Of a stretch of 64,000 nucleotides of DNA, positions 1-64,000 are shown in pieces. A program made the translations under genes and the position numbers. The notes under the pieces were generated by a model. It saw only the letters and a program-made list of their open reading frames with translations. It had not been told where the DNA came from and searched no databases. Origin of the DNA: a virus; the IMG/VR virus record IMGVR_UViG_3300032053_005343, positions 73,012 to 137,011 of that record, one strand, 5' to 3'. The stretch's first letter is position 1, and every line of letters starts with the position of its first letter.

Positions 1-333
1 GCCATGCGAAATTTTATCTAACGCATTTTCTGATCTTGTTGCATATTTTAAATTATTTATATTGTTGTTTAATTTATTGCCGTCAATATGACATCCCTCC
101 ATTCCTTTTGGACATGGACCCTTGAATGCAAGAAGAATTATTCTGTGTAATAAAATTCTTTTGCGTTTGCCATTTTTTATTAGGGATATTCTAATATAAC
201 CACTGACTATATCATTTTTTCTTAATACTCTTTCCTTTTTACAACATATCCCTATCAATCTTTTAACTTCGCCACCACTGGAAGCTTGATAAAAGCCTTC
301 ATATCCAGCAAAATCTTTCCACACTTCTTTCAT
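1..333 (-). CDS. NUMOD4-HNH homing endonuclease (runs off the window edge)
   Basis: Manual translation from ATG at 333: MKEVWKDFAGYEGFYQASSGG...LLHRIILLAFKGPCPKGMEGCHIDGNKLNNNINNLKY; NUMOD4 N-terminus plus HNH motif. Confidence 0.85.
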   Translation of the reverse strand, partial: MKEVWKDFAGYEGFYQASSGGEVKRLIGICCKKERVLRKNDIVSGYIRISLIKNGKRKRILLHRIILLAFKGPCPKGMEGCHIDGNKLNNNINNLKYATRSENALDKISHG

Positions 334-1109
334 ATGCCGTTTCCCCACTCTCGATTCTTGTTAGCATCTATTTGTAAATTTTCTTTTAATTTTTTATATA
401 TTTTTTCATTATCAATTATTGTTTTGTGGAAACTCCTTATTACGGGGTGGTTAATATGATATGTTATTACACTATCATCTATAATTATTTTTACACCACT
501 TTTTTTTATTCTATCTAAAAGATTGACATCTTCGTAACCATACCCGTCTTGAAATTCTTCCTCATATCCTTTCATCTCTTTTAATCTTTGTGTTCTTATA
601 GTCACACAATTATGGAAGCCTTCATAATTTTTTGGAGTTACTTTCCATTGTCTCAATACCGGGAATTGTTTTAAATCAACTAATGGATTATCAATTATTT
701 GTTGTGTTTCTTGTGGACAAAGTTCAATCATACCTCCGGGACGATACACAATATTATCTAAATCTATTATTTTTGATATAATATCATTTTCAATAATAAT
801 TTCTGGATCTTTTGTACACAGCCATTTTGACATACATCGTTTGATAACGAAGTTCCTGATTAGGCACCCATTTCTTTCGTTCGCTGGATTTCTATCAAAC
901 GTAAAATATCTAAGATTAAACTCTTTTTCTAAATCTTCCATTGGTTCGTGAGGTCCATCATTTACAATTAGCCACAAATATTTATCATCAGACACAGATG
1001 TTTTAAATCTTCGGAGAGTGGGAACCAATAGATGCTTACGAGAAAAATTGGGTACAAAAATTATAAGCTCCCTATTTGTTATAGACCAGTCAAATTGTTT
1101 ATGATTCAT
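330..1109 (-). CDS. Glycosyltransferase family 2 (GT-A fold)
   Basis: IIFVPNFSR, IVNDG, RNFVIKR, and C-terminal GYEEEFQDGYGYEDVNL..H.NH resembling Glyco_transf_7C. Confidence 0.75.
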   Translation of the reverse strand: MNHKQFDWSITNRELIIFVPNFSRKHLLVPTLRRFKTSVSDDKYLWLIVNDGPHEPMEDLEKEFNLRYFTFDRNPANERNGCLIRNFVIKRCMSKWLCTKDPEIIIENDIISKIIDLDNIVYRPGGMIELCPQETQQIIDNPLVDLKQFPVLRQWKVTPKNYEGFHNCVTIRTQRLKEMKGYEEEFQDGYGYEDVNLLDRIKKSGVKIIIDDSVITYHINHPVIRSFHKTIIDNEKIYKKLKENLQIDANKNREWGNGI

Positions 1110-1656
1110 TTTTAATATATCCCCATCTTTTGCCAGTATTAATGTTACTTATTTCTGATTGGCCTATCTTAAATATTTGACCAATTTCTTTTTGTGATAA
1201 TTCGTCTTGTTTTAATAATTGTTTTATAATACGAATTATCCAATTATTTAATTTTGCTTTTCCATGAAGTTCTCCTCTATTATTTGGTTTAAGCCAATTA
1301 AAATTACCATGTTTTGTCCTGTCTTTCATATTGTTGGAATGAGTCCCCCAACAAAGATTGTCTAATTTATTGTTTCTTGGATTCCCATCCAAATGTCTAC
1401 ATTCCATTCCCGAAGGACATGTGCCGATAAATGTTTCCAAAACGAGGGTGTGAATTAAATAAAATTTCTTTTTCTTATTTTTGTATAAACAAACGGATAA
1501 ATATCCATCCCTATGTTTACCTGGATTTAAAATCCTTTTTTCTGTACCATTCCATTTAATTAAACTTCTAATAGAACCAAAGATAGATGCCTGATAAAGC
1601 CCTTTATATCCCGGAATATTTTTCCAAATTTCAATATTATTTTGATTTGGTAACAT
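1099..1656 (-). CDS. NUMOD4-HNH homing endonuclease with C-terminal HTH
   Basis: EIWKNIPGYKGLYQAS; CRHLDGNPRNNKLDNL; AKL..SQKEIG HTH. Confidence 0.9.
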   Translation of the reverse strand: MLPNQNNIEIWKNIPGYKGLYQASIFGSIRSLIKWNGTEKRILNPGKHRDGYLSVCLYKNKKKKFYLIHTLVLETFIGTCPSGMECRHLDGNPRNNKLDNLCWGTHSNNMKDRTKHGNFNWLKPNNRGELHGKAKLNNWIIRIIKQLLKQDELSQKEIGQIFKIGQSEISNINTGKRWGYIKNES

Positions 1657-2044
1657 ATTTTATTATTTTCCTAACTTCTACTTTTCTTGTTAAATTTTGT
1701 TTTTCTTGAAAACATGAATCACAAATGCTGCCCTGAATTCTATAATCTTGCCTACTTAACATGTCCTCTAATTGATCAAATTTGCTTCCAAACCCAAAAT
1801 GAATTTCGATCGTTCCACCCTCTAGGTTCGGCAATACTCCTTCTTCATCATTTCCCGCATATCCATCTGTATAAATTGGTATTTCTTTTTCACAGCAAAT
1901 ACAAATCCATTTCCATTTTTTATTTATTTTACAAATACATTTTTCGGGAATTTTTCGACACCCATTACACAAACCCTCTGTGCTATCTTGGTGCGGACAA
2001 CAAACGTTTGATTCGCATCCACACGAATTATATTGCTTTTTCAT
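1637..2044 (-). CDS. Hypothetical Cys-rich protein
   Basis: ORF overlapping both neighbours; several CxxC motifs. Confidence 0.55.
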   Translation of the reverse strand: MKKQYNSCGCESNVCCPHQDSTEGLCNGCRKIPEKCICKINKKWKWICICCEKEIPIYTDGYAGNDEEGVLPNLEGGTIEIHFGFGSKFDQLEDMLSRQDYRIQGSICDSCFQEKQNLTRKVEVRKIIKYVTKSK

Positions 2045-2418
2045 TATTTGTTCCTTTGTTTATCTATTTCTTTTACTATGTTTGGTAAACTAAAATTTTC
2101 ACCTTTTATTGGTTTGTTGGTTGGACCAATGGGTGAATCTTTACTCATATTAGAGCGATGTATTTCTTCGAACATGGGTTCTATGTCTATTCCCATACAA
2201 ACACACATACCAAAAGTTACATACAATAAATCGCCTATTCCATCGCATATACCAATCAAATCACTGTTTTTTGACGCACAAATAATCTCGTTTAATTCTT
2301 CTTGTAAAAAATCCAGTCTGAATTTTAATAGTTCTGGTTGTAATATAGATGGAGAATAACCAATACTATGATTATATTTTTTATGAAAATCTTGAACCAT
2401 TTGTTGCATTTTATTCAT
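2044..2418 (-). CDS. MazG-like/PRA-PH NTP pyrophosphohydrolase
   Basis: VQDFH, LQEELNE, DGIGDLLYV, EIHRSNMSK. Confidence 0.85.
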   Translation of the reverse strand: MNKMQQMVQDFHKKYNHSIGYSPSILQPELLKFRLDFLQEELNEIICASKNSDLIGICDGIGDLLYVTFGMCVCMGIDIEPMFEEIHRSNMSKDSPIGPTNKPIKGENFSLPNIVKEIDKQRNK

Positions 2419-2872
2419 AAATTATATCATCGAACCCTTCCGACATCTCCGGTTTTTCCATTTGCTTATAAAGATTCACAAGAATATTCTCCGGAACCTT
2501 GTTTTCTTTTCTTTGTTCATTATTTTTTAAACAAAATTCTAGAGATTTATTAAAACTAAGAGCTATAACTTTAAATCCAAGTTTTTTACCAAAGTCAATC
2601 CAATATTCTCTACTTTTCTTATTAATGAACCATTTACTCTCGTCAATTATTATACTAAGATTTGGATTTTTAGATAGGGCAAAAATAATATGTCCTATAA
2701 TTTGTTTTAAATACTCTTCTTTTGAGTCGTTATATTGTTCTTTATAAAACGCTAATCTAAAATCATCTACCGAAAGAACCACAATATTTTTTTCTCTTTC
2801 TGCTATTTTTCTGCATGTTGTAGTTTTCTTAGATGCAGGAGGAGCGATGGTTAAATAAAAATACCTATTCAT
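2411..2872 (-). CDS. AAA_33/polynucleotide-kinase-like P-loop protein (degenerate P-loop)
   Basis: APPASKKTT, SVDDFR, IIID, CLKNNEQR..VPE. Confidence 0.7.
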   Translation of the reverse strand: MNRYFYLTIAPPASKKTTTCRKIAEREKNIVVLSVDDFRLAFYKEQYNDSKEEYLKQIIGHIIFALSKNPNLSIIIDESKWFINKKSREYWIDFGKKLGFKVIALSFNKSLEFCLKNNEQRKENKVPENILVNLYKQMEKPEMSEGFDDIIYE

Positions 2873-2874
2873 AA

Positions 2875-3354
2875 TTAATTATCTTTCCACGTTTTATGCA
2901 ATTTAATACAAGCTTCCAATAATCTATTAATTATTCTAATTTTCCATTCGTTTAATTTTGCATTATTATTTTTTGATCCCTTTTGATTCTCTTGTAGTGG
3001 TGGTGGTTTAAATGTACCATGTTTAATTTTATCGTTTTCATTACTCTTGTGAAAATCCCACCTTAAATTTTCTATTAAATAATTTTTTGGATTACCATTA
3101 TTGTGACAAGCCTCCATCCCTTTAGGTCGCTGGCCAACAAAATACTCTAAAACTAAACGGTGAATTCTTATTAGTTTATGTTTACCATTTTTATATAAAT
3201 TGACAAATGGATATCTAGCTTTGATATGAATTTTTAATATTTTGTTAGAAATATTCCCATATCTATTAAATAATCTTTTTATTCTATACAAATTAGAAAA
3301 TTGATATATTCTTTCAAAGCCAATAATATCTTTCCAGACTTCAATATTATTCAT
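2875..3354 (-). CDS. NUMOD4-HNH homing endonuclease (C-terminal HTH shortened)
   Basis: EVWKDIIGFE; IHRLVLEYFVG; ACHNNGNPKN..ENLRW. Confidence 0.85.
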   Translation of the reverse strand: MNNIEVWKDIIGFERIYQFSNLYRIKRLFNRYGNISNKILKIHIKARYPFVNLYKNGKHKLIRIHRLVLEYFVGQRPKGMEACHNNGNPKNYLIENLRWDFHKSNENDKIKHGTFKPPPLQENQKGSKNNNAKLNEWKIRIINRLLEACIKLHKTWKDN

Positions 3355-5710
3355 TTATTTCGACATCTTCTTGGATTTCTATTTTACTATCAACTTGATT
3401 AATGAGATCTTGCGCCAACCAAATCTTATCCAATGCCACAATTCCCAATAGATCGAACTTGACGCAACCCATAGCCTCCGCAGAACCCATTTCAAGTCCG
3501 ACAATTCTTGTTTTATTCTTCGGGTCGAAAACAAGAGGAACCAGTTCGCTAATTGGAATGTCTGCTATAACGAGACCTGCTGCATGTTTTGACTGACTTT
3601 TCTTCGTTTTTTCTAATCTTATCCCCTGATCAAACAATGGTTTATACCATTGATAATATTCTTTAATTTTATCTATATTATCAATACTCCAGTTTAAAAT
3701 TCCGTAATCATTATTTTCTGTTTCTTCTCGCATTTTTTGTAAATCGTCTATAATAGAGGCTTCATCAGGCATCAAAGAAGTAATTTCATTACATAAATCA
3801 AACGGAGTTATAGAAATTTCATCTGGATTTTTGCCCTCTTTTGTTGCTTTTACTTTCATTAAATGTTTTACTAAATCTGGCTGGGCACGAAACACTTCTT
3901 TAAGGGCTGCTTTTCCCTGGAGTCTACCGAAGGTCACCATTTGATTGACTCGTTCGGAACCGTACTTGTTTATTAAATATTCGACTACTTTCTCGCGGAA
4001 GACGACCGAAAGATCGAGATCAATGTCTGGAAGACTAATATGACCTGGATTTATTTTAACGGGTTCGCCTGGGTCTAATTTGCAATGCATTCTTAATGCG
4101 TCCATAATATGTGAATTATTTGGATTTGGAAATTCTAATCCTAAAACCTGATCTTCCGAGGACGAACACATAGTTTGATTATTCTTAAATATTTCTAATA
4201 TGTATAACCACATTTTCGGATTATTTTTATCTATCCAATCAGCTTCTTCTTTAAGTAATTTTTTATTACTTATACTTCTATATTTTAAATTATATTGAAT
4301 AATCAAATTTTTAATGGTATTTCTGGCATCATCAATTTTTTCTTGAATTATAGAATCGGAATTATCTGATAACCATTGCATAAAAGTTATTTGCCCGACA
4401 TCAAAGTGTGGGGGAATATTACGCCCGCTATTATAAAATCTTTGAAAGTAGAGATCGTATTCAAGAGGATCAATTTGGGTTATGTTTAATAGATAATTGA
4501 TCAAAGACCCAGCCCCCGATCCTCTTCCCTTTCCTCTTGGTTTGTTGTTTTCGTCAACGAATTTGCAAATATCATAAACTATTAAAAAATAATCTGCCAA
4601 TTTAGCTTCTTTGATAACATCCAGTTCATATAGTAATCTTTCCCAATAAATTTTCTTTTTTTCTATTGGGAAATTTATTAATTTCTTTTTTGCTCCTTTT
4701 ATACATAATTCTTTTAAATAGTCGTCGGATGAAACTTCGTTTGGGGTTTTATATTTAGGCAAACAGGGTCTTCGCCCCAATTTCGTTGGTTGGATCATGT
4801 CGGAAATTACAAGGGTTTGTTCAATTTCTTCTTTTGTGTAGTGTTCGGCCATTTCCTCTGGTGAAAAGATATAAAAAGTATCCCTAAAGAAAAAAGACAT
4901 GGTATCAGAGCCTTCTGATTTCAACCTAGCCTGTTCTTCTGCTGTTGTGTGTAATTGACTATAAAGAAGTATTCTATGGTCTTCTACCTGTTCTTTTCTC
5001 GCATAATGGGCATCAAGAGTCGATACCGACCGTATATTTAAGGCTTTTGAGATCTCACGAAGACATTCTACTGCCACCTTCTGCGCAGGCATTCCCTCCT
5101 CCTGCAATTCGATAAAATAATTTTCCTTGCCAAAAATTGATATATACCTAGAAACAATTTCATCAGCTATATTTCGCCAATTGGGTTTAAGTAATTTTTT
5201 AACCTCATCTATATTTTCGGTTTGTTCACCAATTAGACATGCCTTCCCAACATCTTCAAATAACGATTTGGAAAGTTCGCCTATGATACAGCCACTTAAA
5301 CATATTAAATTTTTATTTTTTGTGAACAGTGATAAATTATCTACAGAAATTCTAGGCTTCCGGTAAAAGTTTTGAGGTAGGTTGGTATAACTAACTAACG
5401 ACATCAAATCCTTAATACCATTTTCGTTTTTTGCTAATAGTGTAAGGTGATTGTGGGATTTGTTTGTATTGTCTTTAATAGTTTGATCTAATTTACTCGT
5501 GTAAATCTCGCAGGCCACAATTTGCTTGATATCATATTTTTTACAAGCTTTTTGAAAATCTATTATATGAGACACGTTGCCGTGATCGGTTATACAACAA
5601 GCAGGACAACCAATTTCTTTTGCTCGTTTTGCTATTTGTTCCGGAGAACAAAGACCGTCTAAAATTGAATAATCCGAGTGGAGATGGAGTGGGACATATG
5701 TATTACTCAT
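3347..5710 (-). CDS. dnaE: DNA polymerase III alpha subunit, N-terminal part (PHP + palm/thumb); C-terminal domains absent
   Basis: LHLHSDYSILDG, ITDHG, GRGSGAGSL, SLPDIDLD, SKHAAG, VKFDLLG, then stop about 30 aa later. Confidence 0.92.
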   Translation of the reverse strand: MSNTYVPLHLHSDYSILDGLCSPEQIAKRAKEIGCPACCITDHGNVSHIIDFQKACKKYDIKQIVACEIYTSKLDQTIKDNTNKSHNHLTLLAKNENGIKDLMSLVSYTNLPQNFYRKPRISVDNLSLFTKNKNLICLSGCIIGELSKSLFEDVGKACLIGEQTENIDEVKKLLKPNWRNIADEIVSRYISIFGKENYFIELQEEGMPAQKVAVECLREISKALNIRSVSTLDAHYARKEQVEDHRILLYSQLHTTAEEQARLKSEGSDTMSFFFRDTFYIFSPEEMAEHYTKEEIEQTLVISDMIQPTKLGRRPCLPKYKTPNEVSSDDYLKELCIKGAKKKLINFPIEKKKIYWERLLYELDVIKEAKLADYFLIVYDICKFVDENNKPRGKGRGSGAGSLINYLLNITQIDPLEYDLYFQRFYNSGRNIPPHFDVGQITFMQWLSDNSDSIIQEKIDDARNTIKNLIIQYNLKYRSISNKKLLKEEADWIDKNNPKMWLYILEIFKNNQTMCSSSEDQVLGLEFPNPNNSHIMDALRMHCKLDPGEPVKINPGHISLPDIDLDLSVVFREKVVEYLINKYGSERVNQMVTFGRLQGKAALKEVFRAQPDLVKHLMKVKATKEGKNPDEISITPFDLCNEITSLMPDEASIIDDLQKMREETENNDYGILNWSIDNIDKIKEYYQWYKPLFDQGIRLEKTKKSQSKHAAGLVIADIPISELVPLVFDPKNKTRIVGLEMGSAEAMGCVKFDLLGIVALDKIWLAQDLINQVDSKIEIQEDVEINE

Positions 5711-6361
5711 TTATATTGTACCATAAATTTTAATAGGAGTTGTTAGTGATTTTTCTATTGACCAATTTAAAGTATGTATTCTAGTATATAATGTTCCATA
5801 ATTAATTTTATATTCTATTGACCAAGCCTTTAAGCATTGAGTTTTACCTTTAAAAGTATAATTGGTATTTGACCGAGTATTCCTTGCTTGAACTTGATTT
5901 GTCGTAAATCTACAGTTTTCTTTATAATACCCCTTATTGTTGTCTATTCTATCTAAAGAAAGACCCGGTGGACATTCGCCCATGTCTTCTAAGAAATTTT
6001 CAAAAGACCCTCCTTTTTTGGGATTCCATCTGTCGCAAACTGTAATTCCTCTTCCATAATAATTCTCATCATTTTTATTTTTGCATCTTCTTATCATATG
6101 ATACCATATGCTGTGTGTTCTTGATTCTTTGCCATTTCTAGCATGACCATGTTTCAAATTACAATCTTTTTTCAAACATCCGCAACTTTGGGTAGGCTTA
6201 GATTTATTTGTCAAATGAAATCCAGCAATAATTTTTTCATTACCACAGTCGCATTTACACAACCACCTTGAATTTCTAAATTTGCCATTGTCTTTTCTTT
6301 CTTTAACGACTAATTTCCCAAATCTTCGTCCAATTAAATCAATAAAGTTATGTGACATCAT
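5711..6361 (-). CDS. HNH-like endonuclease, DLxG-RFGxL/CxCxCG family
   Basis: DLIGRRFGKL, WLCKCDCG, YYGRGITVC, LDRIDNNKGYYKENC. Confidence 0.85.
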   Translation of the reverse strand: MMSHNFIDLIGRRFGKLVVKERKDNGKFRNSRWLCKCDCGNEKIIAGFHLTNKSKPTQSCGCLKKDCNLKHGHARNGKESRTHSIWYHMIRRCKNKNDENYYGRGITVCDRWNPKKGGSFENFLEDMGECPPGLSLDRIDNNKGYYKENCRFTTNQVQARNTRSNTNYTFKGKTQCLKAWSIEYKINYGTLYTRIHTLNWSIEKSLTTPIKIYGTI

Positions 6362-7245
6362 TTTATATCATCCAAATTTAATTTATAATATTTATTCGTT
6401 ACATATTCTTGCCCAAGTGTATTTAAATCGTACCAAATTTTCGTACACAGGTCGTTCTTTTCATAAGGGCACAGCCGACACTTCCAACTACGGCTTCTTC
6501 TTATTAGGCTATCACCCTTTATCCTAACGAATATACAATGAAGTTGATTTAAAATTTCGGGTATCTCTTCATCCGATAATCCTATACTTGTCGGCCCCAA
6601 ATCTTGAGTATAATAAAAAGTGACAACGCAATTCTTGTATTGTGGAAACAAAATTTTAGCTGCCATAAAATAAATCTTTGCCTGTAATTTTTTAGTTAAA
6701 TTGTAAAAATCCATAGTGTTTTTATCAAACGGACTATTTCTCGAACCCGTCTTATAATCAACAATCTCAATCGTATCTTTATCTAGTTCGTGAATCAAAT
6801 CTATGTAGCCTCGCACACATAATTGCTTCGTCTCGCCATCTTTTTTAACTTCCCATTCTTGTCCCGGCAATCCTATTTCAAACCATTTCTCCGCATCTAC
6901 AACGGTAAGATTATATGGATTATAAAATTCATCCTCAACAACTTTAAAGAATGAAGCCTTGGCTTTTTTATAATCTGCTGATAATCCTTTGCTTGTGAAT
7001 TTTCTTAAATCTGGATGGGGATTTTCGTCCCATGATCGTTCGAACAACCATTCCGGGCTTACGCTTGTCTTTCCCCTCTTTTTTAATAGAGCGGCCCATT
7101 CAAGAGCCCGATGAACTATTGTCCCAATGGTTGCTGCTTTACCAGAACCAGATGATTCTAATTCTAGCACATAGGTTAGCCAATATTTGAATGCGCAGAA
7201 TTTATAGGTTTCCGCTAAACTCGAACTAAATTTATTTATTAACAT
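6358..7245 (-). CDS. PD-(D/E)XK RecB/Cas4-like exonuclease
   Basis: SSSLAETYKFC, GTIVH, RGYIDL, IVDYKTG, Q..IY, C-terminal CxxC..C. Confidence 0.85.
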   Translation of the reverse strand: MLINKFSSSLAETYKFCAFKYWLTYVLELESSGSGKAATIGTIVHRALEWAALLKKRGKTSVSPEWLFERSWDENPHPDLRKFTSKGLSADYKKAKASFFKVVEDEFYNPYNLTVVDAEKWFEIGLPGQEWEVKKDGETKQLCVRGYIDLIHELDKDTIEIVDYKTGSRNSPFDKNTMDFYNLTKKLQAKIYFMAAKILFPQYKNCVVTFYYTQDLGPTSIGLSDEEIPEILNQLHCIFVRIKGDSLIRRSRSWKCRLCPYEKNDLCTKIWYDLNTLGQEYVTNKYYKLNLDDIK

Positions 7246-8158: not shown

Positions 8159-8319
8159 TAATCATAGTGACTATTAATACGATCTCTACAATTTTCACAC
8201 AAAATAATTCTTGGTTCTTTTTTGTGTCCGGGGATATCTAATCCCACATCTTCTATGGTTCGTCCACCTTTTCTCTTGGCGTCTTGTTTACAGATAGAAC
8301 ACAATAATTTAATTTTCAT
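8155..8319 (-). CDS. Small Zn-finger hypothetical protein (54 aa, not in ORF track)
   Basis: Manual translation MKIKLLCSICKQ...ILCENCRDRINSHYDY; fills the gap exactly. Confidence 0.5.
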   Translation of the reverse strand: MKIKLLCSICKQDAKRKGGRTIEDVGLDIPGHKKEPRIILCENCRDRINSHYDY

Positions 8320-9468
8320 TTAATTATCCTTTAATAAAAACTCTTTATTATTATTGTTTAATATTTTACCTATTTTTTCTAATATATCATCCTTGCTCAT
8401 TTCTGCGACATCTTTTGAATTTCCAAGATCTACGGGCACAATCCTAAAATAATAATTAAGTTCTTCTGATAATTTTTGGGTAGCCTCTTTGCCAGTTTGA
8501 TCGTTGTCCATTGCTAAAATTAATGTAAGAGCACCAGCTTTTTGAAGCAATAGCCTCTGGTGTTTAGACATAGAACACCCCATTAAAGATACTCCATTTT
8601 TAATTCCATTTTCTTCAAGTTTCCAAATGTTCCCAGGTGATTCTACTACGGTTGCTGTTCCAGTTTTTGAGATATTATATTTGGCAAAATTATAATTATA
8701 CAGGTGTAACTCTTTTTTCAGACCCTTAGAATGTAACCATTTGCTGTAGAATAAAGACTTCTCTTTCGGCGGGCATTCCATTGTTGAATTATGGTATAAT
8801 CTGCATAGTTTACATTTGTCCCAAACACTTCTTCCAGAGAATCCAACAACGTATTTTCCAGAATCATCTAAAATTGGAAAGAACGCCCTCTCAAAGAATA
8901 ATTTTCCTTTTTTATTACATGATGAAATATAATATTTATCTATGATATTTTGAGATATTCCGCGAGATGGATAGTATTTGGTATCTTTTCTCAACAGGGG
9001 AAGAACTTCTGATAATAGAGGAAATCCATTCTTTTCTATTTTTTTCTTTTTTTTGTATTGTTTAATGATCTTAAAAATTTCAATGTTTTCTTCGGTTTCT
9101 GCGTCTAGTTTAAGATTAGATAAATTTAAAACGGTTGCCGCAAAAGCTACCGATTCTACGAATGAAAATGGACGATTTAATTTATTGGTCATTGTACCGC
9201 GAATAAGTCCGAATACACTATTGGAATTTCCTGAAATTGAATTTCTGTGGCACTGTTTTGTGCTACATTCCCAATGACTGGTGCGAGTGGCCCACCAAAA
9301 TGATCTAGGATTATCTCCGCTATGTGCAGGACAAGACCCTTGGAAATAGTCGGATCTTTCCGTATACTCAATTCCAAGAGCGTCCAATATTTCTGTTATT
9401 CGTTCGCAGGCCCGATCCTGTATGTAGTTAATTTCTGATTGATTAAATTTCTTCATTTTAAAAACCAC
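8320..9468 (-). CDS. dnaG: DNA primase (DnaG-like)
   Basis: CPAH..D.P..F zinc domain; FPI.D..G..VGFSGR; TOPRIM VVES, MDND..G. Confidence 0.88.
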   Translation of the reverse strand: MVFKMKKFNQSEINYIQDRACERITEILDALGIEYTERSDYFQGSCPAHSGDNPRSFWWATRTSHWECSTKQCHRNSISGNSNSVFGLIRGTMTNKLNRPFSFVESVAFAATVLNLSNLKLDAETEENIEIFKIIKQYKKKKKIEKNGFPLLSEVLPLLRKDTKYYPSRGISQNIIDKYYISSCNKKGKLFFERAFFPILDDSGKYVVGFSGRSVWDKCKLCRLYHNSTMECPPKEKSLFYSKWLHSKGLKKELHLYNYNFAKYNISKTGTATVVESPGNIWKLEENGIKNGVSLMGCSMSKHQRLLLQKAGALTLILAMDNDQTGKEATQKLSEELNYYFRIVPVDLGNSKDVAEMSKDDILEKIGKILNNNNKEFLLKDN

Positions 9469-9471
9469 CTT

Positions 9472-10545
9472 TTAGACAACCAATTCTATTGGTTTGGCTC
9501 TTTTAATGTATCTATTGCATCTATAACAAAGAAGTGATAAATTATCTAAATTGAAAAGTTTCAATAATTCTTCTTTTGTTTTTGCTGTTGAGGTTGGAAT
9601 TATGTGATCTACATCATATTTGATTTTATTATAGGATTTATTGCACATTGGACAACAATTATTTTGTGATATTCTTATGCTCTCTAAGTGGTCTTGTAAT
9701 TGTTTGGAATTATAGGGTAAATATTTTGAAAAACCTATTTTATTCTTGTCTTTTGATATCATTTCACTTAAAGAATCTATTAGTTTACGCCCATATTGGC
9801 GGATAAGCAATGATTTTTTATCAAGATTGCTTCTTCTATTATTCGCTTGTTGCTTGGGCGTAGCCCACCTACAATTGTTAGGAGAATAGCCATCTATTAA
9901 TTTATTATTATCTTTTCTATCCAAAGACAACCCAGGAGGACATTCGCCCATGTCTTCTAGAAAATTTTGAAATCCATTATCTTTATCTAACCATCGTTCA
10001 CATATTGTTATTCCTCGTCCTCCATAATCTTTATAGTTTGACATATTTGGATTAGCACATCTTTGTTTCATGCTATCCCAAGCCTTATAGGTTTTTGATC
10101 TTTTCCCAGGCTTATTATGTCCGTGCTTGAAACTTCTTTTAGCTGTTAATTCCTTACTCAAGCATCTACAACTTCTTATAGTTCCGCTTTTAAGATGGTA
10201 GTCTTTGACAATTGTTGTTTCACCACAATCACATAAGCATTCCCACAGAGAATTACCAAGCTTATATCTATTGACACATTTTGTAACGGTCAATCTGTCA
10301 AATTTTTGTCCCGTTAAATCAATAAATCTATTTTTATTTCTTTCTATAGTTTTCACTATAGCAAAACAACCACAACTATTAGTTTTACCTTCTCTTAAGT
10401 TTCCACCGAGAACTATTTTTTCGTTTCCACAATCACATTTACACAACCACATATGTTTACTATTTTTATTTTTGCCCATATATTTTATAGGGGTCAATCT
10501 CCCGAATTTTTTTCCTATCAAATCAATTAATTTTCGTCCTCTCAT
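9472..10545 (-). CDS. Endonuclease: two DLxG modules, a DR-type HNH-like domain and a canonical C-terminal HNH
   Basis: DLIGKKFGRL and DLTGQKFDRL repeats; LDRKDNNK; CPMC..DVDHIIP..NL..LCYRCN. Confidence 0.85.
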   Translation of the reverse strand: MRGRKLIDLIGKKFGRLTPIKYMGKNKNSKHMWLCKCDCGNEKIVLGGNLREGKTNSCGCFAIVKTIERNKNRFIDLTGQKFDRLTVTKCVNRYKLGNSLWECLCDCGETTIVKDYHLKSGTIRSCRCLSKELTAKRSFKHGHNKPGKRSKTYKAWDSMKQRCANPNMSNYKDYGGRGITICERWLDKDNGFQNFLEDMGECPPGLSLDRKDNNKLIDGYSPNNCRWATPKQQANNRRSNLDKKSLLIRQYGRKLIDSLSEMISKDKNKIGFSKYLPYNSKQLQDHLESIRISQNNCCPMCNKSYNKIKYDVDHIIPTSTAKTKEELLKLFNLDNLSLLCYRCNRYIKRAKPIELVV

Positions 10546-13772: not shown

Positions 13773-13773
13773 T

Positions 13774-14727: not shown

Positions 14728-14732
14728 ACCAA

Positions 14733-18199: not shown

Positions 18200-18369
18200 T
18201 TGGTTTTATCTTCTATTTCCTTCACAACAAGATTTTTATCTATTTTCATTTCTTCACGATCTTTATCGCCCATAATATTCAATTTCTTTTTACCAAACAC
18301 AGATTCCCAGTTTGCGGTTTCAATCTCCGGAGAAACTTGGCATTTACGTTTATTAGAACCTTTCCCCAT
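18196..18369 (-). CDS. Small hypothetical protein (57 aa, not in ORF track)
   Basis: MGKGSNKRKCQVS...; AAAGGA upstream; ATGA overlap with next gene. Confidence 0.5.
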   Translation of the reverse strand: MGKGSNKRKCQVSPEIETANWESVFGKKKLNIMGDKDREEMKIDKNLVVKEIEDKTK

Positions 18370-52659: not shown

Positions 52660-53303
52660 TATTTTTTTCTCCTATTATATTTTCTTATTGGTATTGTTAA
52701 AGCTTCTTCCATAGAATATCCGTATGTATCTATCCTTGTCATTATCGTATGATAATTTAGATTAAATTTTTTGCAATGATCTTTTAAACACAATCCATTA
52801 ATGTTTATGTTAGTTTTCATGTTTCTATGTTGTTGTTTGTTTGTTGCCCATCTCCAGTTACCTGGAAAATACCCCTTGTTATTGTCTGTTCTATCAAGAG
52901 ATTTTTTATATGGTGGATCGCCAACGTCTTTATAAAAATTTTCAAATCCGTTTTTCTTATTTGACCATCTTTTACAAACTGTAATTGGAGGGATTCTTCC
53001 TCCATAGTTCTTGTATGCTTTATGATTTTTGTCGTTACATCTAGAAATCATACTCGACCATATATAATAAATTTTAGTTTTGCATTTTTGGTGCTTGGTT
53101 CTATTTTTATTTCTTAATATTGTTTGTTCTTTACTAAAACATCCACAGCTTTTTGTGTGTTTACTTTTTAAATCACCGGATGTTACTTTTATTTCTTTTC
53201 CACAATCACACAAGCATAACCAAAGTATTTGGTTGGATCTATTTCTACCGTCCTGTTTAATAACGAGAAGTCTTTCAAATCTTTGCCCGATTAAATCCAT
53301 CAA
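52659..53303 (-). CDS. DLxG-family HNH-like endonuclease
   Basis: DLIGQRFERL, CLCDCG, LDRTDNNKGY. Confidence 0.85.
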   Translation of the reverse strand: MMDLIGQRFERLLVIKQDGRNRSNQILWLCLCDCGKEIKVTSGDLKSKHTKSCGCFSKEQTILRNKNRTKHQKCKTKIYYIWSSMISRCNDKNHKAYKNYGGRIPPITVCKRWSNKKNGFENFYKDVGDPPYKKSLDRTDNNKGYFPGNWRWATNKQQHRNMKTNININGLCLKDHCKKFNLNYHTIMTRIDTYGYSMEEALTIPIRKYNRRKK

Positions 53304-56153: not shown

Positions 56154-57712
56154 TAAGCCACAACCCTTCTTCCTTTCTTGTCCGCGACTCTTTCTGTTGG
56201 ACTGTTGGCATTCTTAGCGTGTTTAATTCCCCATTCTCTTGTTTTTTGAATACGTTCTGGCTCTAATTTACTAAGTGGAATCACAGATTCAATTGCAATT
56301 TCTAAGTGATTTTGAGACAATTCTACTTTCTGACAAAAGGCAATCTTTAACCCAAGTTCAATACTTTGTTCAATGTCTGAACCCGTAAATCCAACAGTTT
56401 TCTCAACTAAAGATTTAAGATCATAAACAGATGGGTCTCTTTTTCTCTTTGAAATATGGATATTAAAAATTGATTTTCTTTCAAAATCATTTGGTAGATC
56501 AAGAGCAAATACAGCGTCAAAACGTCCACTCCGCAAAAATTCAACGGGGATACTACTTATATCATTCGCGGTAGCTGCAAGATATACCGGAGAAGTTCTG
56601 TCAGAGAGCCATTTCAAGAATGTACCAAACACGCGACGACTAGCACCTCCATCTAAATCTCCCGATCCGCCAAGTCCTTTTTCGATTTCATCCAACTGTA
56701 GTACACAGGGAGCAACGCTTTCAACAATTTTTATCGCTTCTCTCATGTTTGCTTCCGACGAACCTACATATTGATTCATAATACTTCCAATGTCCAGACT
56801 AATTAATGGTAAATTAAATTCTGAACTTATTGCCACTGTAATTAAAGATTTTCCACAGCCAGGAATTCCTACCAACATAAGTCCACGAGGATATCTAATA
56901 CCAAAATCTCTTGCCTCATCGGAAAAACATGGTTTATCTAATTTTAGATGATTTTTAAGCGCACCATATCCACCAATGTTATTCAATCCACCTGGAGGGG
57001 GTTCTATATACTGCAATATTCCAGATTTTTTTATTACCGAAGCCTTTTCTGACAAGATAGTTTTTAAAGCATCTTGATTAAAATCTTTGTGTTTTCTTAT
57101 TGAAAGAGCTAGACGATCAATTATTTGGGTGTTAGTCATTCCACAACAAGACTTTATAATGTCTGGCAATAGTTCTTGGGTGGGTTCAAATTTAGTGTCA
57201 TCTTTTGTACTTACGCCTTCACAAATGAATTTTATATTATTTTCAATGTCATTCTTTTGCGGTAAAGGAAAGTCAATGTTGGTTATATCGTTTTTCAAAC
57301 AATTTGGGGCTTTGAAAGCTGAATCCAAAAAAATGATTGTTTTACACGAATTACTTAAAATTTCTCTTGTTTCCTCTAGCCACGAAATTGCCATATCAAA
57401 TGAATTGTATGTTTCGTGATGTAAATATATACAGAATTCCTTCAATATAAAAATTGAATTCTCTTGCATTTCATTTATAGATTTTATGACTTCTTCTGGG
57501 GGTAATTGGCCCGTTGTGCCCCCGACTTTGCAGTTTTTCTCATCTACCCACGAAGTTGCCGCCGACCATATAAAGATTTTTCTATTTATTTCTTTAGCGC
57601 ATTTTGATATATGATCAATACATCTTGATTTTTCAAAAGTATCAATTGATAACAAAGCGTGGCCCGACAATAAATAATCGACGAGATCAGTATGAAAATT
57701 ATTATTGGTCAT
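56153..57712 (-). CDS. Ycf46-like AAA+ ATPase
   Basis: Degenerate N-terminal AAA; IGGYGALK, GIPGCGKS, LDEIEK, ATAN, LRSGRFD, GFTGSDI. Confidence 0.88.
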   Translation of the reverse strand: MTNNNFHTDLVDYLLSGHALLSIDTFEKSRCIDHISKCAKEINRKIFIWSAATSWVDEKNCKVGGTTGQLPPEEVIKSINEMQENSIFILKEFCIYLHHETYNSFDMAISWLEETREILSNSCKTIIFLDSAFKAPNCLKNDITNIDFPLPQKNDIENNIKFICEGVSTKDDTKFEPTQELLPDIIKSCCGMTNTQIIDRLALSIRKHKDFNQDALKTILSEKASVIKKSGILQYIEPPPGGLNNIGGYGALKNHLKLDKPCFSDEARDFGIRYPRGLMLVGIPGCGKSLITVAISSEFNLPLISLDIGSIMNQYVGSSEANMREAIKIVESVAPCVLQLDEIEKGLGGSGDLDGGASRRVFGTFLKWLSDRTSPVYLAATANDISSIPVEFLRSGRFDAVFALDLPNDFERKSIFNIHISKRKRDPSVYDLKSLVEKTVGFTGSDIEQSIELGLKIAFCQKVELSQNHLEIAIESVIPLSKLEPERIQKTREWGIKHAKNANSPTERVADKKGRRVVA

Positions 57713-58350
57713 TTATTTTTCCTTTTAATATATTTTCTAACAGGCGTTAATAAAGCTTTTTCTATTGATTGACCGCTAGACAATCTGTCTCTTAGTACAT
57801 GCGGATTCATATTATATTCTTCTGCCATAGCAGACATACATTGTTTTTTATTATCATATTCAATTATAAGATTGTCTCTTCTGTTCCTGTTATTGTTTTT
57901 AGAAACAACCCATCTACAATTTCGTTTATAATAACCTTTGTTATTATTTATTCTATCTATCTGATATTTATTAGTTGGAGGTTGTCCCATATCTTCTAGA
58001 AAATTTAAGAATCCCCTTGAGCCGGACCATCTTTTGCAAACTTTTATTCCACGACCGCCATAATCTTTGTATGCATGATTATTTGGATTATTACATCTTT
58101 GTTTCATATTATGATATGAATTATAGATATTCAATTGATATAAACCATGTTTCGTACTAAATATCTTTGCTGTTTCTTTTTGCAGACACCCACAACTTTT
58201 CGTTTTGCCACTTTTCAAGGAATCTGAAAGAATTATTTTTTGATTCCCACAATCACACTTACACAACCATCTTAATCTTCTTTTAGTTATAGTTAATATT
58301 CTTTTTATAATTAATAATCTACCGAATCTTTGTCCAATTAAATTATTCAT
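57709..58350 (-). CDS. DLxG-family HNH-like endonuclease
   Basis: NLIGQRFGRL, CKCDCG, IDRINNNKGY. Confidence 0.85.
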   Translation of the reverse strand: MNNLIGQRFGRLLIIKRILTITKRRLRWLCKCDCGNQKIILSDSLKSGKTKSCGCLQKETAKIFSTKHGLYQLNIYNSYHNMKQRCNNPNNHAYKDYGGRGIKVCKRWSGSRGFLNFLEDMGQPPTNKYQIDRINNNKGYYKRNCRWVVSKNNNRNRRDNLIIEYDNKKQCMSAMAEEYNMNPHVLRDRLSSGQSIEKALLTPVRKYIKRKNK

Positions 58351-58689: not shown

Positions 58690-58891
58690 TTAACCGCTTT
58701 AAATCAAATAGTTCGTTAAGACTTGCTTGTGAGTCGAGCAATAAATATTCTATAGACATGGCCAAATGTTGTAATAATAGTTCGGTTTCGTCAACATGCT
58801 TAGAGGATAGCTTCTTGTTGGTAATCTCTACATCAGAACCCATTTTTTGGAGGATTCTTCTTAGTTCACACCGCACTTGTTTGTCTTGCAC
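58655..58891 (-). CDS. Hypothetical protein
   Basis: 78 aa ORF. Confidence 0.5.
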   Translation of the reverse strand: MQDKQVRCELRRILQKMGSDVEITNKKLSSKHVDETELLLQHLAMSIEYLLLDSQASLNELFDLKRLNEYGDNNGIFN

Positions 58892-59648
58892 GCACTATTT
58901 CCTTTTCTTTTGTTTTTAAAACAAATTTTAATTGATTTATTGCATATGGGATAAAATATGCTTTTATTAGCTTTTCCAGAGATTTAAAGATATTGTTTTT
59001 CGCATTTAAATATGTATTATAATTTTTAATTCCGCCAAATTTCAACATATCAGAGATTAATTGATCCATATTTAAACTTATACCATAATTGCAAGAATAA
59101 AGATATATTGATTTTAAATCTTTTGAAGAAAATTTTAAAAGTTGTATTAAATTATTTATTGCATTATTTGCAGGAGATTTATATAAAATATCATTAATTT
59201 TACGATCAGCTATTTGGTTTATCATTTGATTTAAAAGTAAAGCCAATCGCTTAAATATTATAGATTTTTCACTTATTTTTATTGTTGGTTTACCATTTTT
59301 ATCTATTAAAACTCTTTCATAATATAAAGACAATATCTTTTCTTTTTTATCAACTATCCAAAACCAGCCATCTATTTGTTTTAATTTTACGGGACTATAT
59401 TTTTCCATTCGTGATTTTGTTAGATTTGTTAATTGTCCATTTGTAGATAATCTGAATAATCCGTTTGGCAGTATGGTAATTATTGGTGTAGAATATAAAT
59501 TAATTATAAAAGATTTATTGACTTTTTCTAAGGTCACATTTTTTTCTAGAGGAACCGTATTTTTTTCTAGTTGGTCCTCTTGGGTTATTGGGAATTCTTT
59601 TCCTTTGCTCTTTTTTGTAAATAGCTCATTTGCTTCTTGGTAATTCAT
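58866..59648 (-). CDS. Hypothetical phage protein
   Basis: 260 aa ORF; L.TNG..T..TKSRM motif. Confidence 0.6.
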   Translation of the reverse strand: MNYQEANELFTKKSKGKEFPITQEDQLEKNTVPLEKNVTLEKVNKSFIINLYSTPIITILPNGLFRLSTNGQLTNLTKSRMEKYSPVKLKQIDGWFWIVDKKEKILSLYYERVLIDKNGKPTIKISEKSIIFKRLALLLNQMINQIADRKINDILYKSPANNAINNLIQLLKFSSKDLKSIYLYSCNYGISLNMDQLISDMLKFGGIKNYNTYLNAKNNIFKSLEKLIKAYFIPYAINQLKFVLKTKEKEIVRARQTSAV

Positions 59649-60294
59649 TTTTAGTTCTCCAATTATGGCGGGTGTCTGGTGGAATTGTTAGGGCTTCTTC
59701 GGGAGTCCAACCGGCGGCTAATCTGCGTCTAATAGTAGCCTTATGGATTCCGGTTATTTCTGATGCTTCTGCTATACAGATTTCCTTTCCTTTGTATGGT
59801 ATTAAATGATTTGATCTTCTGTTTCTTGCTTGTTCTTTTCTCGTAGATAGTCTACAATTTTTCGGAGAATACCCGTTTTTTAATTTATTGTTATTTATTC
59901 TGTCTAGTTCATATCCTTTAGGAATTTCCCCAATATCCTCTAAGAAATTTTTGAATCCTCGCCCATCTGGTTCTGTCCATCTTGAACAAATTGTAATACC
60001 TCGACCACCATAATTTTTATATGATTTATGAAGAGGGTTTTCACATCTTTGTTTCATACTATCCCATGCACTAAATGTTTTTGAGGATATTTTATATTTA
60101 GTATGCCCATGTTTAAAACGTAAACATCCACAGCTTTTAGTTTTATTGGTTTGTAGACTATTGCCACTAATTATCTTTTGTTTTCCACAATCACATAAAC
60201 ACAACCATTGTGAGCGATTATATTTATTGTTTTCTAGTCGTTTGATAACTATTAAATTTCCAAATCTTTCACCAATTAGATTTAATACTTTCAT
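59626..60294 (-). CDS. DLxG-family HNH-like endonuclease
   Basis: NLIGERFGNL, CLCDCG, LDRINNNK..GYSPKNC. Confidence 0.85.
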   Translation of the reverse strand: MKVLNLIGERFGNLIVIKRLENNKYNRSQWLCLCDCGKQKIISGNSLQTNKTKSCGCLRFKHGHTKYKISSKTFSAWDSMKQRCENPLHKSYKNYGGRGITICSRWTEPDGRGFKNFLEDIGEIPKGYELDRINNNKLKNGYSPKNCRLSTRKEQARNRRSNHLIPYKGKEICIAEASEITGIHKATIRRRLAAGWTPEEALTIPPDTRHNWRTKNELPRSK

Positions 60295-62577: not shown

Positions 62578-62583
62578 AAATAT

Positions 62584-63012
62584 TTATCTCCTAGAAAGTC
62601 TGTCCACCGGATATGGCCAGATTGCTATGTTAGGAATCTCTCTCCATCCAAATTTACTATAATATTCATAATTTTTCGCAAGTAATATGGCTCGGTAAGC
62701 AGAATGATACTTTTCTGTGCCAAGCCACGACGGATACACCACAATATTTTTGTCGGGCAAATCAGATAGTTTCATGGTATTGTTATATCCACGATTTATC
62801 CATTCTTTGATCATACAATTCATATATTGTGCTAAGGCGGGAAGATGTCCGGTCCACATACGACTAGCTGGGTGATTTTTCCATCCGTTTTTAACTGGAT
62901 TTAAAAAGCCGTCTAGAATTTGGCGTGCTTCTACTCGTTGCTTAGAAAGTCTTCTCCAGTCCAAGATCTTTGCTGTTTCCATAAAGCTGGGAACTGGTAA
63001 AAATGTCTGCAC
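62584..63012 (-). CDS. Pyrimidine-dimer DNA glycosylase-like protein (T4 endoV/MSMEG_6728 family)
   Basis: (M)QTFLP, LDWRRLSKQRVEARQI, W.NHPA.RMW.G, EW..RGY. Confidence 0.85.
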   Translation of the reverse strand: MQTFLPVPSFMETAKILDWRRLSKQRVEARQILDGFLNPVKNGWKNHPASRMWTGHLPALAQYMNCMIKEWINRGYNNTMKLSDLPDKNIVVYPSWLGTEKYHSAYRAILLAKNYEYYSKFGWREIPNIAIWPYPVDRLSRR

Positions 63013-63277
63013 CAGGATCTCCTCCTAGAACTTGTATCAAATCTCTAAGTCTATTTATTGTGTCTGGTTCTCTTTTTATAGATTGTTCAAAATTTGATAA
63101 ACCTATTAAATATTCATATGGCGGAACTAAAAACCCCCTTAAGTCTTTGTCGCTTTCCGGAGTTGCTGTTCCGTATAAATTCGATCCTCCGACACATAAT
63201 AAATCTGGGTTTTTTATTTTTTCTTCTAATGCCTTTTCTTTGTTCATGTTATGTCCACATGTATTTTCTAATATCAA
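62942..63277 (-). pseudogene. Truncated Pol-beta-superfamily nucleotidyltransferase
   Basis: GSNLYGT.TP.SD.D.RG motif; similarity ends after EPDT. Confidence 0.65.
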
Positions 63278-63737
63278 GAATTTCCCTTAATTTCTTTTCG
63301 AGTTCTTCTTCCATTGCCCGGTCTCTTGCGTGAATAATATTCATTTTTGCTTGATCTGAATCTGAAAATGGTTTCATTTCATAGATGCCAGGACGATTCG
63401 GATCTTTAATAAACATTTCATCCCAATTTTTTGTATAATCTAGTTCAATTCCTTCCCACGGGTCATATTTTAGATAAATATTGTGGAACCAATCATTTAA
63501 TTCATCCATTTTATCGCGGGCTTTACGATGCTCTGGGTCGGAATCCCAATCTATAATTAGGTCCGGTTTTTCTTTTTTAATAAAATCATCTAAAATAGTG
63601 AACATGGCATGTACCATAATATGGTCACGATCTGTCCAGGTATAAGGGAGCGATTTAATTTTAACCACATTATATGGATGAAAAAGTTTGCATTTTAACC
63701 AATACCATAAATCATGGATTTTTCTTCTAATAATCAT
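63249..63737 (-). CDS. Hypothetical phage protein
   Basis: W.D.D..M..A.F..L.DF..E; R.YMWT end. Confidence 0.6.
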   Translation of the reverse strand: MIIRRKIHDLWYWLKCKLFHPYNVVKIKSLPYTWTDRDHIMVHAMFTILDDFIKKEKPDLIIDWDSDPEHRKARDKMDELNDWFHNIYLKYDPWEGIELDYTKNWDEMFIKDPNRPGIYEMKPFSDSDQAKMNIIHARDRAMEEELEKKLREILDIRKYMWT

Positions 63738-64000
63738 TTGTTTCCCCTATTTACATGTTTCCAAGAATTATCATTTATTATTCCCCAAATTACTCTTTGG
63801 GTAACATTAAAAATTTTTGCAATTTTTCTTTGAGATAATCCCTGTTCGTGTAACTTTTTAATTTTTGGTATGTTTAATTCTACTAATTTTGCATTTCCGT
63901 ATTTTGATCCTCTCGCTTTATTAAATCTAGTGCCGTGTTTGATTTGATCATCTATATTATTTTGACGAGTATCCCATTTTAAATTACACAGTCTATTATC
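63734..64000 (-). CDS. HNH endonuclease, NUMOD4-type C-terminal part (5' end outside window)
   Basis: DNRLCNLKWDT..N..D..KHGT..GSKYGNAKL..SQRKIAKIF..WKHV. Confidence 0.85.
   Translation of the reverse strand, partial: DNRLCNLKWDTRQNNIDDQIKHGTRFNKARGSKYGNAKLVELNIPKIKKLHEQGLSQRKIAKIFNVTQRVIWGIINDNSWKHVNRGNK

Follow-up and report, generated by a model that had tools for sequence, protein, structure and literature searches.

A 64-kb stretch of an uncultivated tailed phage from sediment (positions 73,012 to 137,011 of IMG/VR record IMGVR_UViG_3300032053_005343, referred to here as the window) carries an exceptional load of homing endonuclease (HE)-like genes, inserted among the conserved genes of a replication and nucleotide-metabolism module. 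Its 24 free-standing HE-like open reading frames (ORFs) and two LAGLIDADG inteins together occupy 18,324 bp, or 28.6% of the window, and matches to HE families are denser in this genome than in any of the 21 relatives scanned. The lineage has probably accumulated these selfish DNA-targeting genes by repeated intronless homing over a long period, drawing on at least four families in addition to inteins. The observations that carry this reading are the gene content, the outlying density, the pattern of presence and absence at junctions and the divergence of the copies.

A quarter of the window consists of homing endonuclease-like genes

All-against-all BLAST comparison of the window ORFs yields one cluster of 21 proteins, which splits into three paralogous families. 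The 24 free-standing ORFs comprise six NUMOD4+HNH_3 genes (family A, of I-HmuI type), 11 genes of the DLxG family (PHROG 374), three GIY-YIG genes, three other HNH genes and one decayed fragment. They are listed below together with the two inteins; HTH denotes a helix-turn-helix.

1–348, minus strand: NUMOD4+HNH_3 endonuclease gene, cut by the window edge (full ORF at genome 72817–73359); Pfam HNH_3 5.7e-15, NUMOD4 1.1e-7
1099–1656, minus strand: NUMOD4+HNH_3 endonuclease gene with C-terminal HTH (Pfam)
2875–3354, minus strand: NUMOD4+HNH_3 endonuclease gene just downstream of the N-terminal piece of dnaE (Pfam)
5711–6361, minus strand: DLxG (PHROG 374) gene flanked by dnaE and a PD-(D/E)XK nuclease gene (family homology)
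9472–10545, minus strand: DLxG gene between dnaB and primase, with duplicated N-terminal Zn-ribbon module and C-terminal PF01844 HNH
11942–12454, minus strand: other HNH endonuclease gene adjoining dnaB (phrog_2255 at 1.9e-18)
13774–14727, minus strand: GIY-YIG + DLxG fusion (N-terminal GIY-YIG) downstream of recA; Pfam GIY-YIG 3.4e-10, TIGR01453 2.4e-22
17660–18199, minus strand: NUMOD4+HNH_3 endonuclease gene (Pfam)
19536–20171, minus strand: GIY-YIG endonuclease gene with NUMOD3 and HTH tail, adjoining RNase H (Pfam)
21082–21633, minus strand: NUMOD4+HNH_3 endonuclease gene (Pfam)
22870–23898, minus strand: 342-residue ORF with a decayed DLxG fragment at its C terminus (BLAST clustering, PHROG)
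29172–29960, minus strand: D5-like regulator-type ORF with a weak HNH tail, doubtful as an HE; phrog_323 4.1e-30, HNH phrogs 1.7e-6
31199–31951, minus strand: HNH_3 endonuclease gene without NUMOD4 (Pfam HNH_3 9.1e-10)
31957–32841, minus strand: DLxG gene with an 80-residue C-terminal extension, adjoining the sigma factor gene
34489–35151, minus strand: DLxG gene overlapping thyX by 8 nt
40304–40798, minus strand: NUMOD4+HNH_3 endonuclease gene sharing 8 nt with the BrxL-like gene (Pfam)
41292–41813, minus strand: truncated DLxG gene (173 residues) without the C-terminal HTH
42104–42733, minus strand: GIY-YIG endonuclease gene adjoining the phosphoesterase-RNA ligase gene (Pfam)
45529–46188, minus strand: DLxG gene adjoining DNA ligase
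50617–51243, minus strand: DLxG gene abutting IMPDH
51365–52036, minus strand: GIY-YIG endonuclease gene with NUMOD3 (Pfam; I-TevI 1mk0 1.4e-8)
52659–53303, minus strand: DLxG gene abutting DUF1257
57709–58350, minus strand: DLxG gene sharing 4 nt with the AAA ATPase gene
59626–60294, minus strand: DLxG gene
26537–27787, minus strand: LAGLIDADG intein, residues 161–577 of the ribonucleotide reductase gene 25238–28267; Pfam LAGLIDADG_3 5.6e-10, Intein_splicing, Hom_end
48752–49837, minus strand: LAGLIDADG intein, residues 261–622 of the IMPDH gene 48551–50617; Pfam LAGLIDADG_3 4e-7

All six family A members in the window exceed the Pfam cut-offs for both NUMOD4 and HNH_3, and 12 NUMOD4 matches are present across the whole genome. 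The family A profile matches the structure of I-HmuI (Protein Data Bank (PDB) entry 1u3e) with an E value of 2.6e-26 over about 120 residues, and its motif residues H88, N100 and N109, invariant in 15 sequences, align with those of I-HmuI. The four GIY-YIG domains, one of which belongs to the fusion gene, all lie above the Pfam cut-off (36–47 bits against 22.6), and the GIY-YIG genes match the I-TevI catalytic domain (PDB 1mk0) at 1.4e-8; two of the three stand-alone genes carry NUMOD3 and one an HTH, the fourth having a DLxG body instead. The reductase intein shows the junctions C...VHN|S and is missing from the G001 and G002 orthologues, while the IMPDH intein has junctions C...GN|S, with the penultimate His replaced, and is missing from the G002 and G004 orthologues. 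Outside the window the contig holds 13 more HE-like ORFs and two more inteins, which brings the total to 37 free-standing ORFs and 4 inteins (about 41 elements).

The 24 window ORFs account for 15,987 bp (25.0% of the window) and the two inteins for 2,337 bp; over the whole contig the free-standing ORFs amount to 24,690 bp (18.0%, or about 21% with inteins). These genes are tightly packed against their neighbours, with 32 of 48 HE boundaries in the window either overlapping (22) or separated by a gap of less than 10 nt. Genome-wide, 33 of 34 occupied junctions have a conserved flank, compared with 90 of 111 unoccupied ones (P = 0.015). An earlier sequence-only reading of this DNA had reported seven NUMOD4-type HNH genes, 11 DLxG genes with one fused to GIY-YIG, three further GIY-YIG genes, three other HNH genes and two LAGLIDADG inteins, at a load of about 17.5 kb or 27% of the window, with frequent overlaps or gaps below 10 nt. 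The heavy load is confirmed with a single miscount, since six NUMOD4+HNH_3 genes are found by Pfam; the 11 DLxG genes, the fusion, the GIY-YIG genes, the inteins with proper junctions and, for 29172–29960 weakly, the other HNH genes all hold. The core-gene neighbours it had named (dnaE, primase, dnaB, recA, RNase H, dCMP deaminase, sigma factor, thyX, the BrxL-like gene, the ligases, IMPDH, DUF1257 and AAA) were likewise all recovered by Pfam.

Endonuclease density is exceptional within the clade

Searches of IMG/VR based on DnaE returned about 40 relatives, with DnaE identities of 49–82%. The 21 of these with records of at least 50 kb were scanned in six frames with five family models (PHROG 374, HNH_3, GIY-YIG, LAGLIDADG_3 and HNH); two pairs, G007/G018 and G008/G009, look like near-duplicate records. 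The present genome gives 45 matches, or 32.8 per 100 kb, and ranks first of the 22 records, whereas the relatives give 0 to 31 matches with a median of 6.0 per 100 kb. The richest among them are G016 (19.4 per 100 kb, the maximum), G014 (13.5, a 52-kb fragment), G004 (10.7) and G010 (10.5), and three records, G013, G006 and G021, have no match to any of the five families. The density is therefore exceptional for the clade rather than typical of it, the latter being an outcome that the sequence-only reading had named as refuting it. GIY-YIG matches, of which there are four here, are absent from all 21 relatives. A measure independent of endonuclease recognition points the same way, as the syntenic block from dnaE to thyX spans 32.6 kb here, compared with 22.5 kb in G001, 21.4 kb in G002 and 20.9 kb in G004. 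In isolate phages, 1,228 of 50,697 records carry the DLxG family, at 1,390 places in all; a carrier thus has about one copy, against about 16 here.

The record G013, a complete relative of 168,090 bp with direct terminal repeats and no match, provides a natural endonuclease-free reference for the clade.

Most junctions are free of endonuclease genes in relatives

Three relatives, G001 (DnaE 82% identical), G002 and G004, were compared whole, by ORF calls, reciprocal best hits and the content between orthologues of the genes that flank each HE-like ORF. Seventeen of the 24 window ORFs stand at junctions that hold no HE-family match in any syntenic relative, and at many of these the flanking genes abut or overlap, with spacings of −49 to +22 nt. 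The positions are thus not the fixed ones of vertical inheritance, the other outcome that the sequence-only reading had named as refuting it. For the ORFs starting at 1099, 5711, 9472, 11942, 13774, 19536, 29172 and 52659, the flanks lie −49 to +84 nt apart in every informative relative. They overlap by 20 nt in G001 and G004 at 1099–1656, are spaced by 0, −8 and −8 nt in G001, G002 and G004 at 5711–6361, abut in all three relatives at 9472–10545, 11942–12454, 13774–14727 and 29172–29960, and are 2 nt apart in G002 at 52659–53303. The ORF at 1–348 is absent from an abutting junction in G001, and no HE match is present at the junction of 17660–18199 in any of the three. Reciprocal best hits gave no orthologue of 11942–12454 or 31199–31951 in the fetched relatives.

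The remaining seven ORFs occupy junctions that are also filled in some relative, and at least three of these (downstream of dnaE, upstream of the reductase gene, and at thyX) hold a different family in a relative. Downstream of dnaE (2875–3354), family A here is matched by DLxG in G002 and by no gene in G001. The thyX junction (34489–35151) is a hot one, with DLxG here and in G002 and family A (HNH_3) in G001; upstream of the reductase gene (22870–23898), the decayed DLxG fragment corresponds to DLxG in G001 and to family A (HNH_3) in G004. The IMPDH–DUF1257 interval holds two ORFs here, DLxG and GIY-YIG, and DLxG in G004, while the left edge of the window, where intervals are more loosely defined, has family A here and in G004 and DLxG in G002. 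At the DNA ligase junction (45529–46188), DLxG is found in all three informative genomes, with reciprocal best hits at 58% and 51% in G002 and G004; no other position has a DLxG gene in both of these relatives as well as here. Hot junctions with family turnover, together with lineage-specific insertions, form the pattern that homing predicts.

The copies are old and probably of more than one origin

Protein identity between paralogues is 40–58%, and 8 of the 14 full-length DLxG copies find their best BLAST partner in a database protein rather than in a paralogue. The family trees are star-like, with end branches of 0.3–0.7 substitutions per site. A quick 86-row tree was set aside, because a constrained tree was 32.8 log-likelihood units better than the free one, and a more careful 44-row tree was built instead; in none of its 200 bootstrap trees do the copies of this genome form one clade. 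A well-supported branch of the 44-row tree that groups three copies with a G004 copy indicates at least two origins.

The sequence-only reading had suggested runaway proliferation or a role in competition between co-infecting phages. Accumulation specific to the lineage is supported by the outlying density and the non-fixed positions; a single recent burst is not, given the divergence of the paralogues, the star-like trees and the lack of any nucleotide stretch above 80.5% identity to the sampled relatives. We conclude from these sequence comparisons that accumulation was probably long and did not involve a recent runaway burst; several lineages of endonucleases would have fed it, a few of them expanding locally on a small scale.

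By the proposed route, HE genes, lying mostly in intergenic junctions beside conserved genes and tightly packed with the neighbour, would spread in mixed infections, in which the endonuclease would cut, close to the junction, the allele of a related phage that lacks the endonuclease gene. Repair by recombination, possibly through the homologues of RecA and PD-(D/E)XK nuclease encoded by the phage, would then copy the endonuclease gene in. Gains of this kind would have been spread over a long time and drawn from several endonuclease lineages that already existed, accompanied by a degree of local duplication and shuffling of domains. A published study offers precedent both for endonuclease genes next to essential phage genes and for the shuffling of domains among them (PMC10055350).

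The DLxG family is probably mobile and has a putative remodelled active site

The commonest family in the window is also uncharacterized. The DLxG body has no match in Pfam or NCBIfam and is recognized by PHROG 374 ('HNH endonuclease') with E values of 1e-51 to 1e-84. PHROG 374 is not known as a T4 family. It is very large, with 6,429 matches in a word-indexed search and, in a profile search of 1.84 billion cluster representatives, 200,172 at E ≤ 0.001 and 74,058 at E ≤ 1e-30, and it is overwhelmingly viral. Its architecture consists of an N-terminal Zn-ribbon module with five Cys, a central domain and a C-terminal HTH.

Profile–profile alignment (hhalign) places the DLxG motif DRIDNN..Y...NCRW.T..EQ..N on the HNH_3 core of family A with a probability of 81% and an E value of 1.2e-5. 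In this alignment, an Arg falls at the position of the catalytic His and a Gln at that of the metal-binding Asn. Across about 350 domain instances from 263 proteins, Arg is present in 349 of 352 and His in none, with Tyr in 334 of 354, Asn in 351 of 356 and Gln in 312 of 350. In the helix, an Asn three residues past the Gln position is found in 326 of 351 instances, and the preceding residue is Asp or Glu in 325 of 353. Conservation reaches 99% for R139, 94% for Y146, 99% for N150 and 93% for N162, and D138 is kept in 78%, with Glu in a further 15%. The canonical active site thus appears to have been exchanged for another, equally conserved set of residues rather than merely to have decayed.

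Fused GIY-YIG and HNH domains aside, none of the 11 whole DLxG proteins scores above a Pfam cut-off, and one of seven central domains gives a weak HNH_3 match (E 0.0034) below it. A fold search of the PDB with the whole DLxG model (mean predicted local distance difference test, pLDDT, 85.8) returned nothing at E < 0.5; with the central-domain model (pLDDT 71.6) it returned 14 matches, among them PacI, Gme HNH and I-HmuI, all at E > 3 and too weak as evidence. A sequence-profile search of the PDB with the family gave matches at chance level only, and the protein atlas leads only to viral clusters annotated as 'hypothetical' or 'HNH endonuclease family', with a DUF723 lead at 0.88. Among the 120 homologues listed, six have DLxG fused to GIY-YIG in the position of the DNA-binding domain.

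By homology and behaviour, the DLxG genes appear HE-like, the label 'HNH endonuclease' standing for a putative nuclease activity, and their distribution across junctions argues that they are mobile. It is conceivable, if rather improbable, that DLxG is a remodelled His-Me finger, with Arg, Tyr and Gln in place of H-N-N, that is mobile all the same; it would then either cut DNA in a non-canonical manner on an HNH scaffold or be a nuclease-less DNA-binding 'hitch-hiker' mobilized in trans by neighbouring canonical endonucleases, a parasite of parasites. The hitch-hiker version, if true, would also account for the pile-up of DLxG genes in the most endonuclease-rich genome.

Single proteins of up to about 900 residues can carry as many as 11 copies of the 65-residue N-terminal Zn-ribbon module (database proteins P0123, P0133, P0222 and others), and such arrays resemble a programmable DNA-reading array. 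Family A, GIY-YIG and DLxG genes have a C-terminal HTH in common, and a chimeric gene of G001 (118695–119222) joins a NUMOD4-HNH_3 head of family A to a tail of the DLxG family. To judge from this common tail and the chimera, domain shuffling or recombination between endonuclease families is visible.

Alternative explanations

The same gene content could have arisen if the ancestor of the clade was already saturated and its other descendants lost their genes by precise deletion, the load here being inherited vertically. Loss is a known part of the HE gene life cycle, decayed copies are present here (41292–41813, 22870–23898 and genome 62031–62255), the copies are as old as their 40–58% identity implies, and other records of the clade, such as G016 and G004, are rich too. 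Such a history would nonetheless require repeated scar-free deletions, because at least nine window junctions have flanks that abut or overlap in all informative relatives, including the closest, G001; different families sit at shared junctions in different genomes, and GIY-YIG is found in none of the 21 relatives. Ancestral saturation is for these reasons highly unlikely. Still further from plausible, to the point of being negligible, is an assembly artefact in which a chimeric contig joins alleles or collapses paralogues. When contigs are aligned to the window, the paralogous genes do generate many false joints with short sides. However, the stretch is present in sediment metagenome runs from several studies, and contigs of three runs other than the likely source bridge junctions between HE and core genes with 0–23 differences (X2 at 2078–3884 and at 8222–10211 and X3 at 6029–6637 with 0 differences each, X5 at 13550–14838 with 23 and at 17458–18384 with 12); paralogues less than 60% identical in protein are, moreover, too distant to collapse. 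Candidate excision joints in the sediment contigs, which have sides of 20–30 nt and link paralogues, were rejected, as none cleanly removes a gene; loose ends of contigs cluster within endonuclease genes or next to them.

Two further proposals bear on what the load means rather than on how it arose. Selection, rather than selfishness alone, may maintain it for a benefit to the phage: the nucleases would act as weapons against co-infecting relatives, exclude them, or bias inheritance towards the adjacent core genes. This proposal is compatible with accumulation by homing, and we regard it as possible but doubtful. Most copies are full-length ORFs with conserved motifs and adjoin essential genes, and in the sediment runs contigs at 90–99% identity lie side by side, which shows that related strains co-occur. 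A role in competition between co-infecting phages would follow by published analogy: an intron endonuclease is reported to mediate interference competition (PMC11620839), and SegB of T4 to drive preferred inheritance (PMC2330249). Against a benefit stands G013, which, as a complete 168-kb genome without a match to any of the five families, indicates that the clade does well without these genes. Alternatively, the count may be inflated, the nine stand-alone DLxG genes being DNA-binding descendants of HNH enzymes, in which case some 13–14 free-standing window genes and the two inteins would be left with a recognized nuclease domain. The lack of an own Pfam match in 11 of 11 whole proteins, the single weak HNH_3 match, the replacement of catalytic His and metal-binding Asn by Arg and Gln, the recurrence of DLxG where a DNA-binding domain stands in GIY-YIG fusions and the lack of a significant PDB fold match all speak for it. 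However, DLxG genes behave like mobile endonuclease genes, being present or absent at exact junctions; they occur in records poor in canonical endonucleases, such as G002 (five DLxG and one HNH_3 matches); and their replaced residues are nearly invariant, as in a conserved active surface rather than a decaying one. An inflated count consequently seems unlikely, if still worth entertaining.

Several points weigh against accumulation by repeated homing, which remains the preferred explanation. Cleavage, homing and any benefit to the phage are inferred, not observed, events, and the commonest family is without the canonical catalytic His. The density figures count matches rather than genes, and several relatives in that comparison are fragments; junctions of relatives were scored with hidden Markov models of three families (family A, DLxG and GIY-YIG), which other families or small ORFs could escape. 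Within the window, enrichment beside conserved genes is weak (20 of 20 HE junctions with at least one conserved flank, compared with 48 of 57 unoccupied junctions; P = 0.056), because most genes there are conserved. By an approximately unbiased (AU) test, one clade uniting the copies of this genome remained acceptable (p = 0.72), the free 86-row tree having been poorly searched, and the choice between transfer and within-genome duplication is largely beyond what the trees can decide. No recent exchange tract, co-conversion or HE island shared with G001–G004 was found by blastn (best 80.5%), a comparison confined to distant relatives, and no clean endonuclease-free allele was seen over window 1–20000 in contigs of four other sediment runs, where contigs drop rare variants.

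The phage and the remaining content of the window

The source record is a linear contig of 137,011 bp with a CheckV completeness estimate of 82%. The window has a G+C content of about 31%, all its credible genes lie on the minus strand, and a tRNA scan found no tRNA gene in it. Pfam identifies it as a phage replication and nucleotide-metabolism module, with genes for replication (the N-terminal piece of DnaE, primase and DnaB), recombination and repair (two PD-(D/E)XK nucleases, RecA, RNase H and DenV) and nucleotide metabolism (dNMP kinase, ribonucleotide reductase, dCMP deaminase, ThyX and IMPDH), as well as a sigma factor, ClpP, Dam methylase, a BrxL-like ATPase, a phosphoesterase-RNA ligase, DNA ligase, DUF1257, DUF3150 and an AAA ATPase. 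The phage belongs to a clade with genomes of about 160–180 kb and a DnaE-type polymerase. It has no close cultured relative, since an 8-kb stretch of the window has no nucleotide match among isolate phages and the best DnaE protein match in 50,697 isolate records does not exceed 33% identity.

Two pieces separated by 18.2 kb encode DnaE. The piece in the window (3347–5710) holds PHP and the first DNA_pol3_alpha domain, and the finger domain lies outside it in a 903-residue ORF (genome 55410–58121) that also contains a 322-residue intein (residues 79–400, junctions C...VHN|S). DnaE is split likewise in G001, where the gap is about 11.8 kb, so that the extra length here is mostly endonuclease genes. 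The BrxL-like Lon-type ATPase (38902–40311; BrxL_ATPase at 2e-104) is a core gene of the clade, with orthologues of 52–73% identity in G001, G002 and G004. BrxL is otherwise known from the bacterial BREX defence system.

Four ORFs of 100–160 residues (30698–31180, 16624–16986, 28267–28572 and 40810–41157) have no reciprocal best hit in four fetched relatives, the first two having in addition no Pfam or PHROG match. None is more than about 700 nt away from an intein or endonuclease gene, and they could be cargo or unrecognized mobile genes. Similarly, the DLxG genes at 57709–58350 and 59626–60294 bracket two ORFs specific to this genome (58372–58689 and 58866–59648). G002 and G004 lack this entire 2.6-kb block, their flanks being separated by 191 and 52 nt, and it may be a small endonuclease-bracketed cargo island; a protein-atlas look-up of its 260-residue ORF (58866–59648) gave only sub-threshold leads (Kyano_Gp96).

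Comparison with known systems

HE genes are known to drive both the mosaicism of phages and the competition between them. The genomes of this clade, though otherwise syntenic, extend from no match at all to saturation and form a natural junction-by-junction matrix of presence and absence, which allows one to ask how much load a phage tolerates before it becomes costly, which junctions are hot and how families replace one another at a single site. The analysis also flags a very large uncharacterized family with Arg where the catalytic His is expected, whose biochemistry is directly testable on the endonuclease-free junctions of relatives.

At the level of the enzymes, family A keeps the His and Asn motif residues of I-HmuI, an intron-encoded HNH nicking endonuclease of Bacillus phage SPO1, but differs in being free-standing; no group I intron was noticed here, although no search was aimed at them. 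DLxG has only the ββα core region and the C-terminal HTH in common with I-HmuI, with Arg for His. At the level of the genome, a close model is T4, whose seg (GIY-YIG) and mob (HNH) genes are free-standing and reported to spread by intronless homing (PMC2988022, PMC2790892, PMC2330249). As in T4, the genes described here are free-standing, co-oriented, wedged between conserved genes, variable among relatives and drawn from mixed nuclease families. T4 is credited with 15 such genes (PMC7344957), against 37 free-standing HE-like ORFs and four inteins in 137 kb here, for which homing is inferred.

Several of the same features are described for Vibrio phage ICP1 and for further phage lineages dense in endonucleases (Barth, Dunham and Seed 2023, PMC10055350): HE genes near replisome and ribonucleotide reductase genes, lineage-wise family expansion, beads-on-a-string Zn-finger modules and domain swaps. 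The dominant ICP1 families, T5orf172 and IPA-HNH, differ from those found here, where no long high-identity exchange of a 'HEG island' was detected. A published case of similar size is Pectobacterium phage vB_PatM_CB7, which its description (PMC7344957) presents as having 23 endonucleases, 'one of the largest numbers' described, with 21 HNH ORFs making up about 7% of the genome; phrase searches of the literature, which do not reach supplementary tables, found no higher published count. Like the present phage, CB7 is of about 140 kb and combines an exceptional load of HNH genes, many of them free-standing and unevenly shared with relatives, with LAGLIDADG inteins. With about 41 elements, and free-standing ORFs covering 18.0% of the contig, the genome described here approximately doubles the published count and triples the published genome fraction, and is an extreme case of a known phenomenon.

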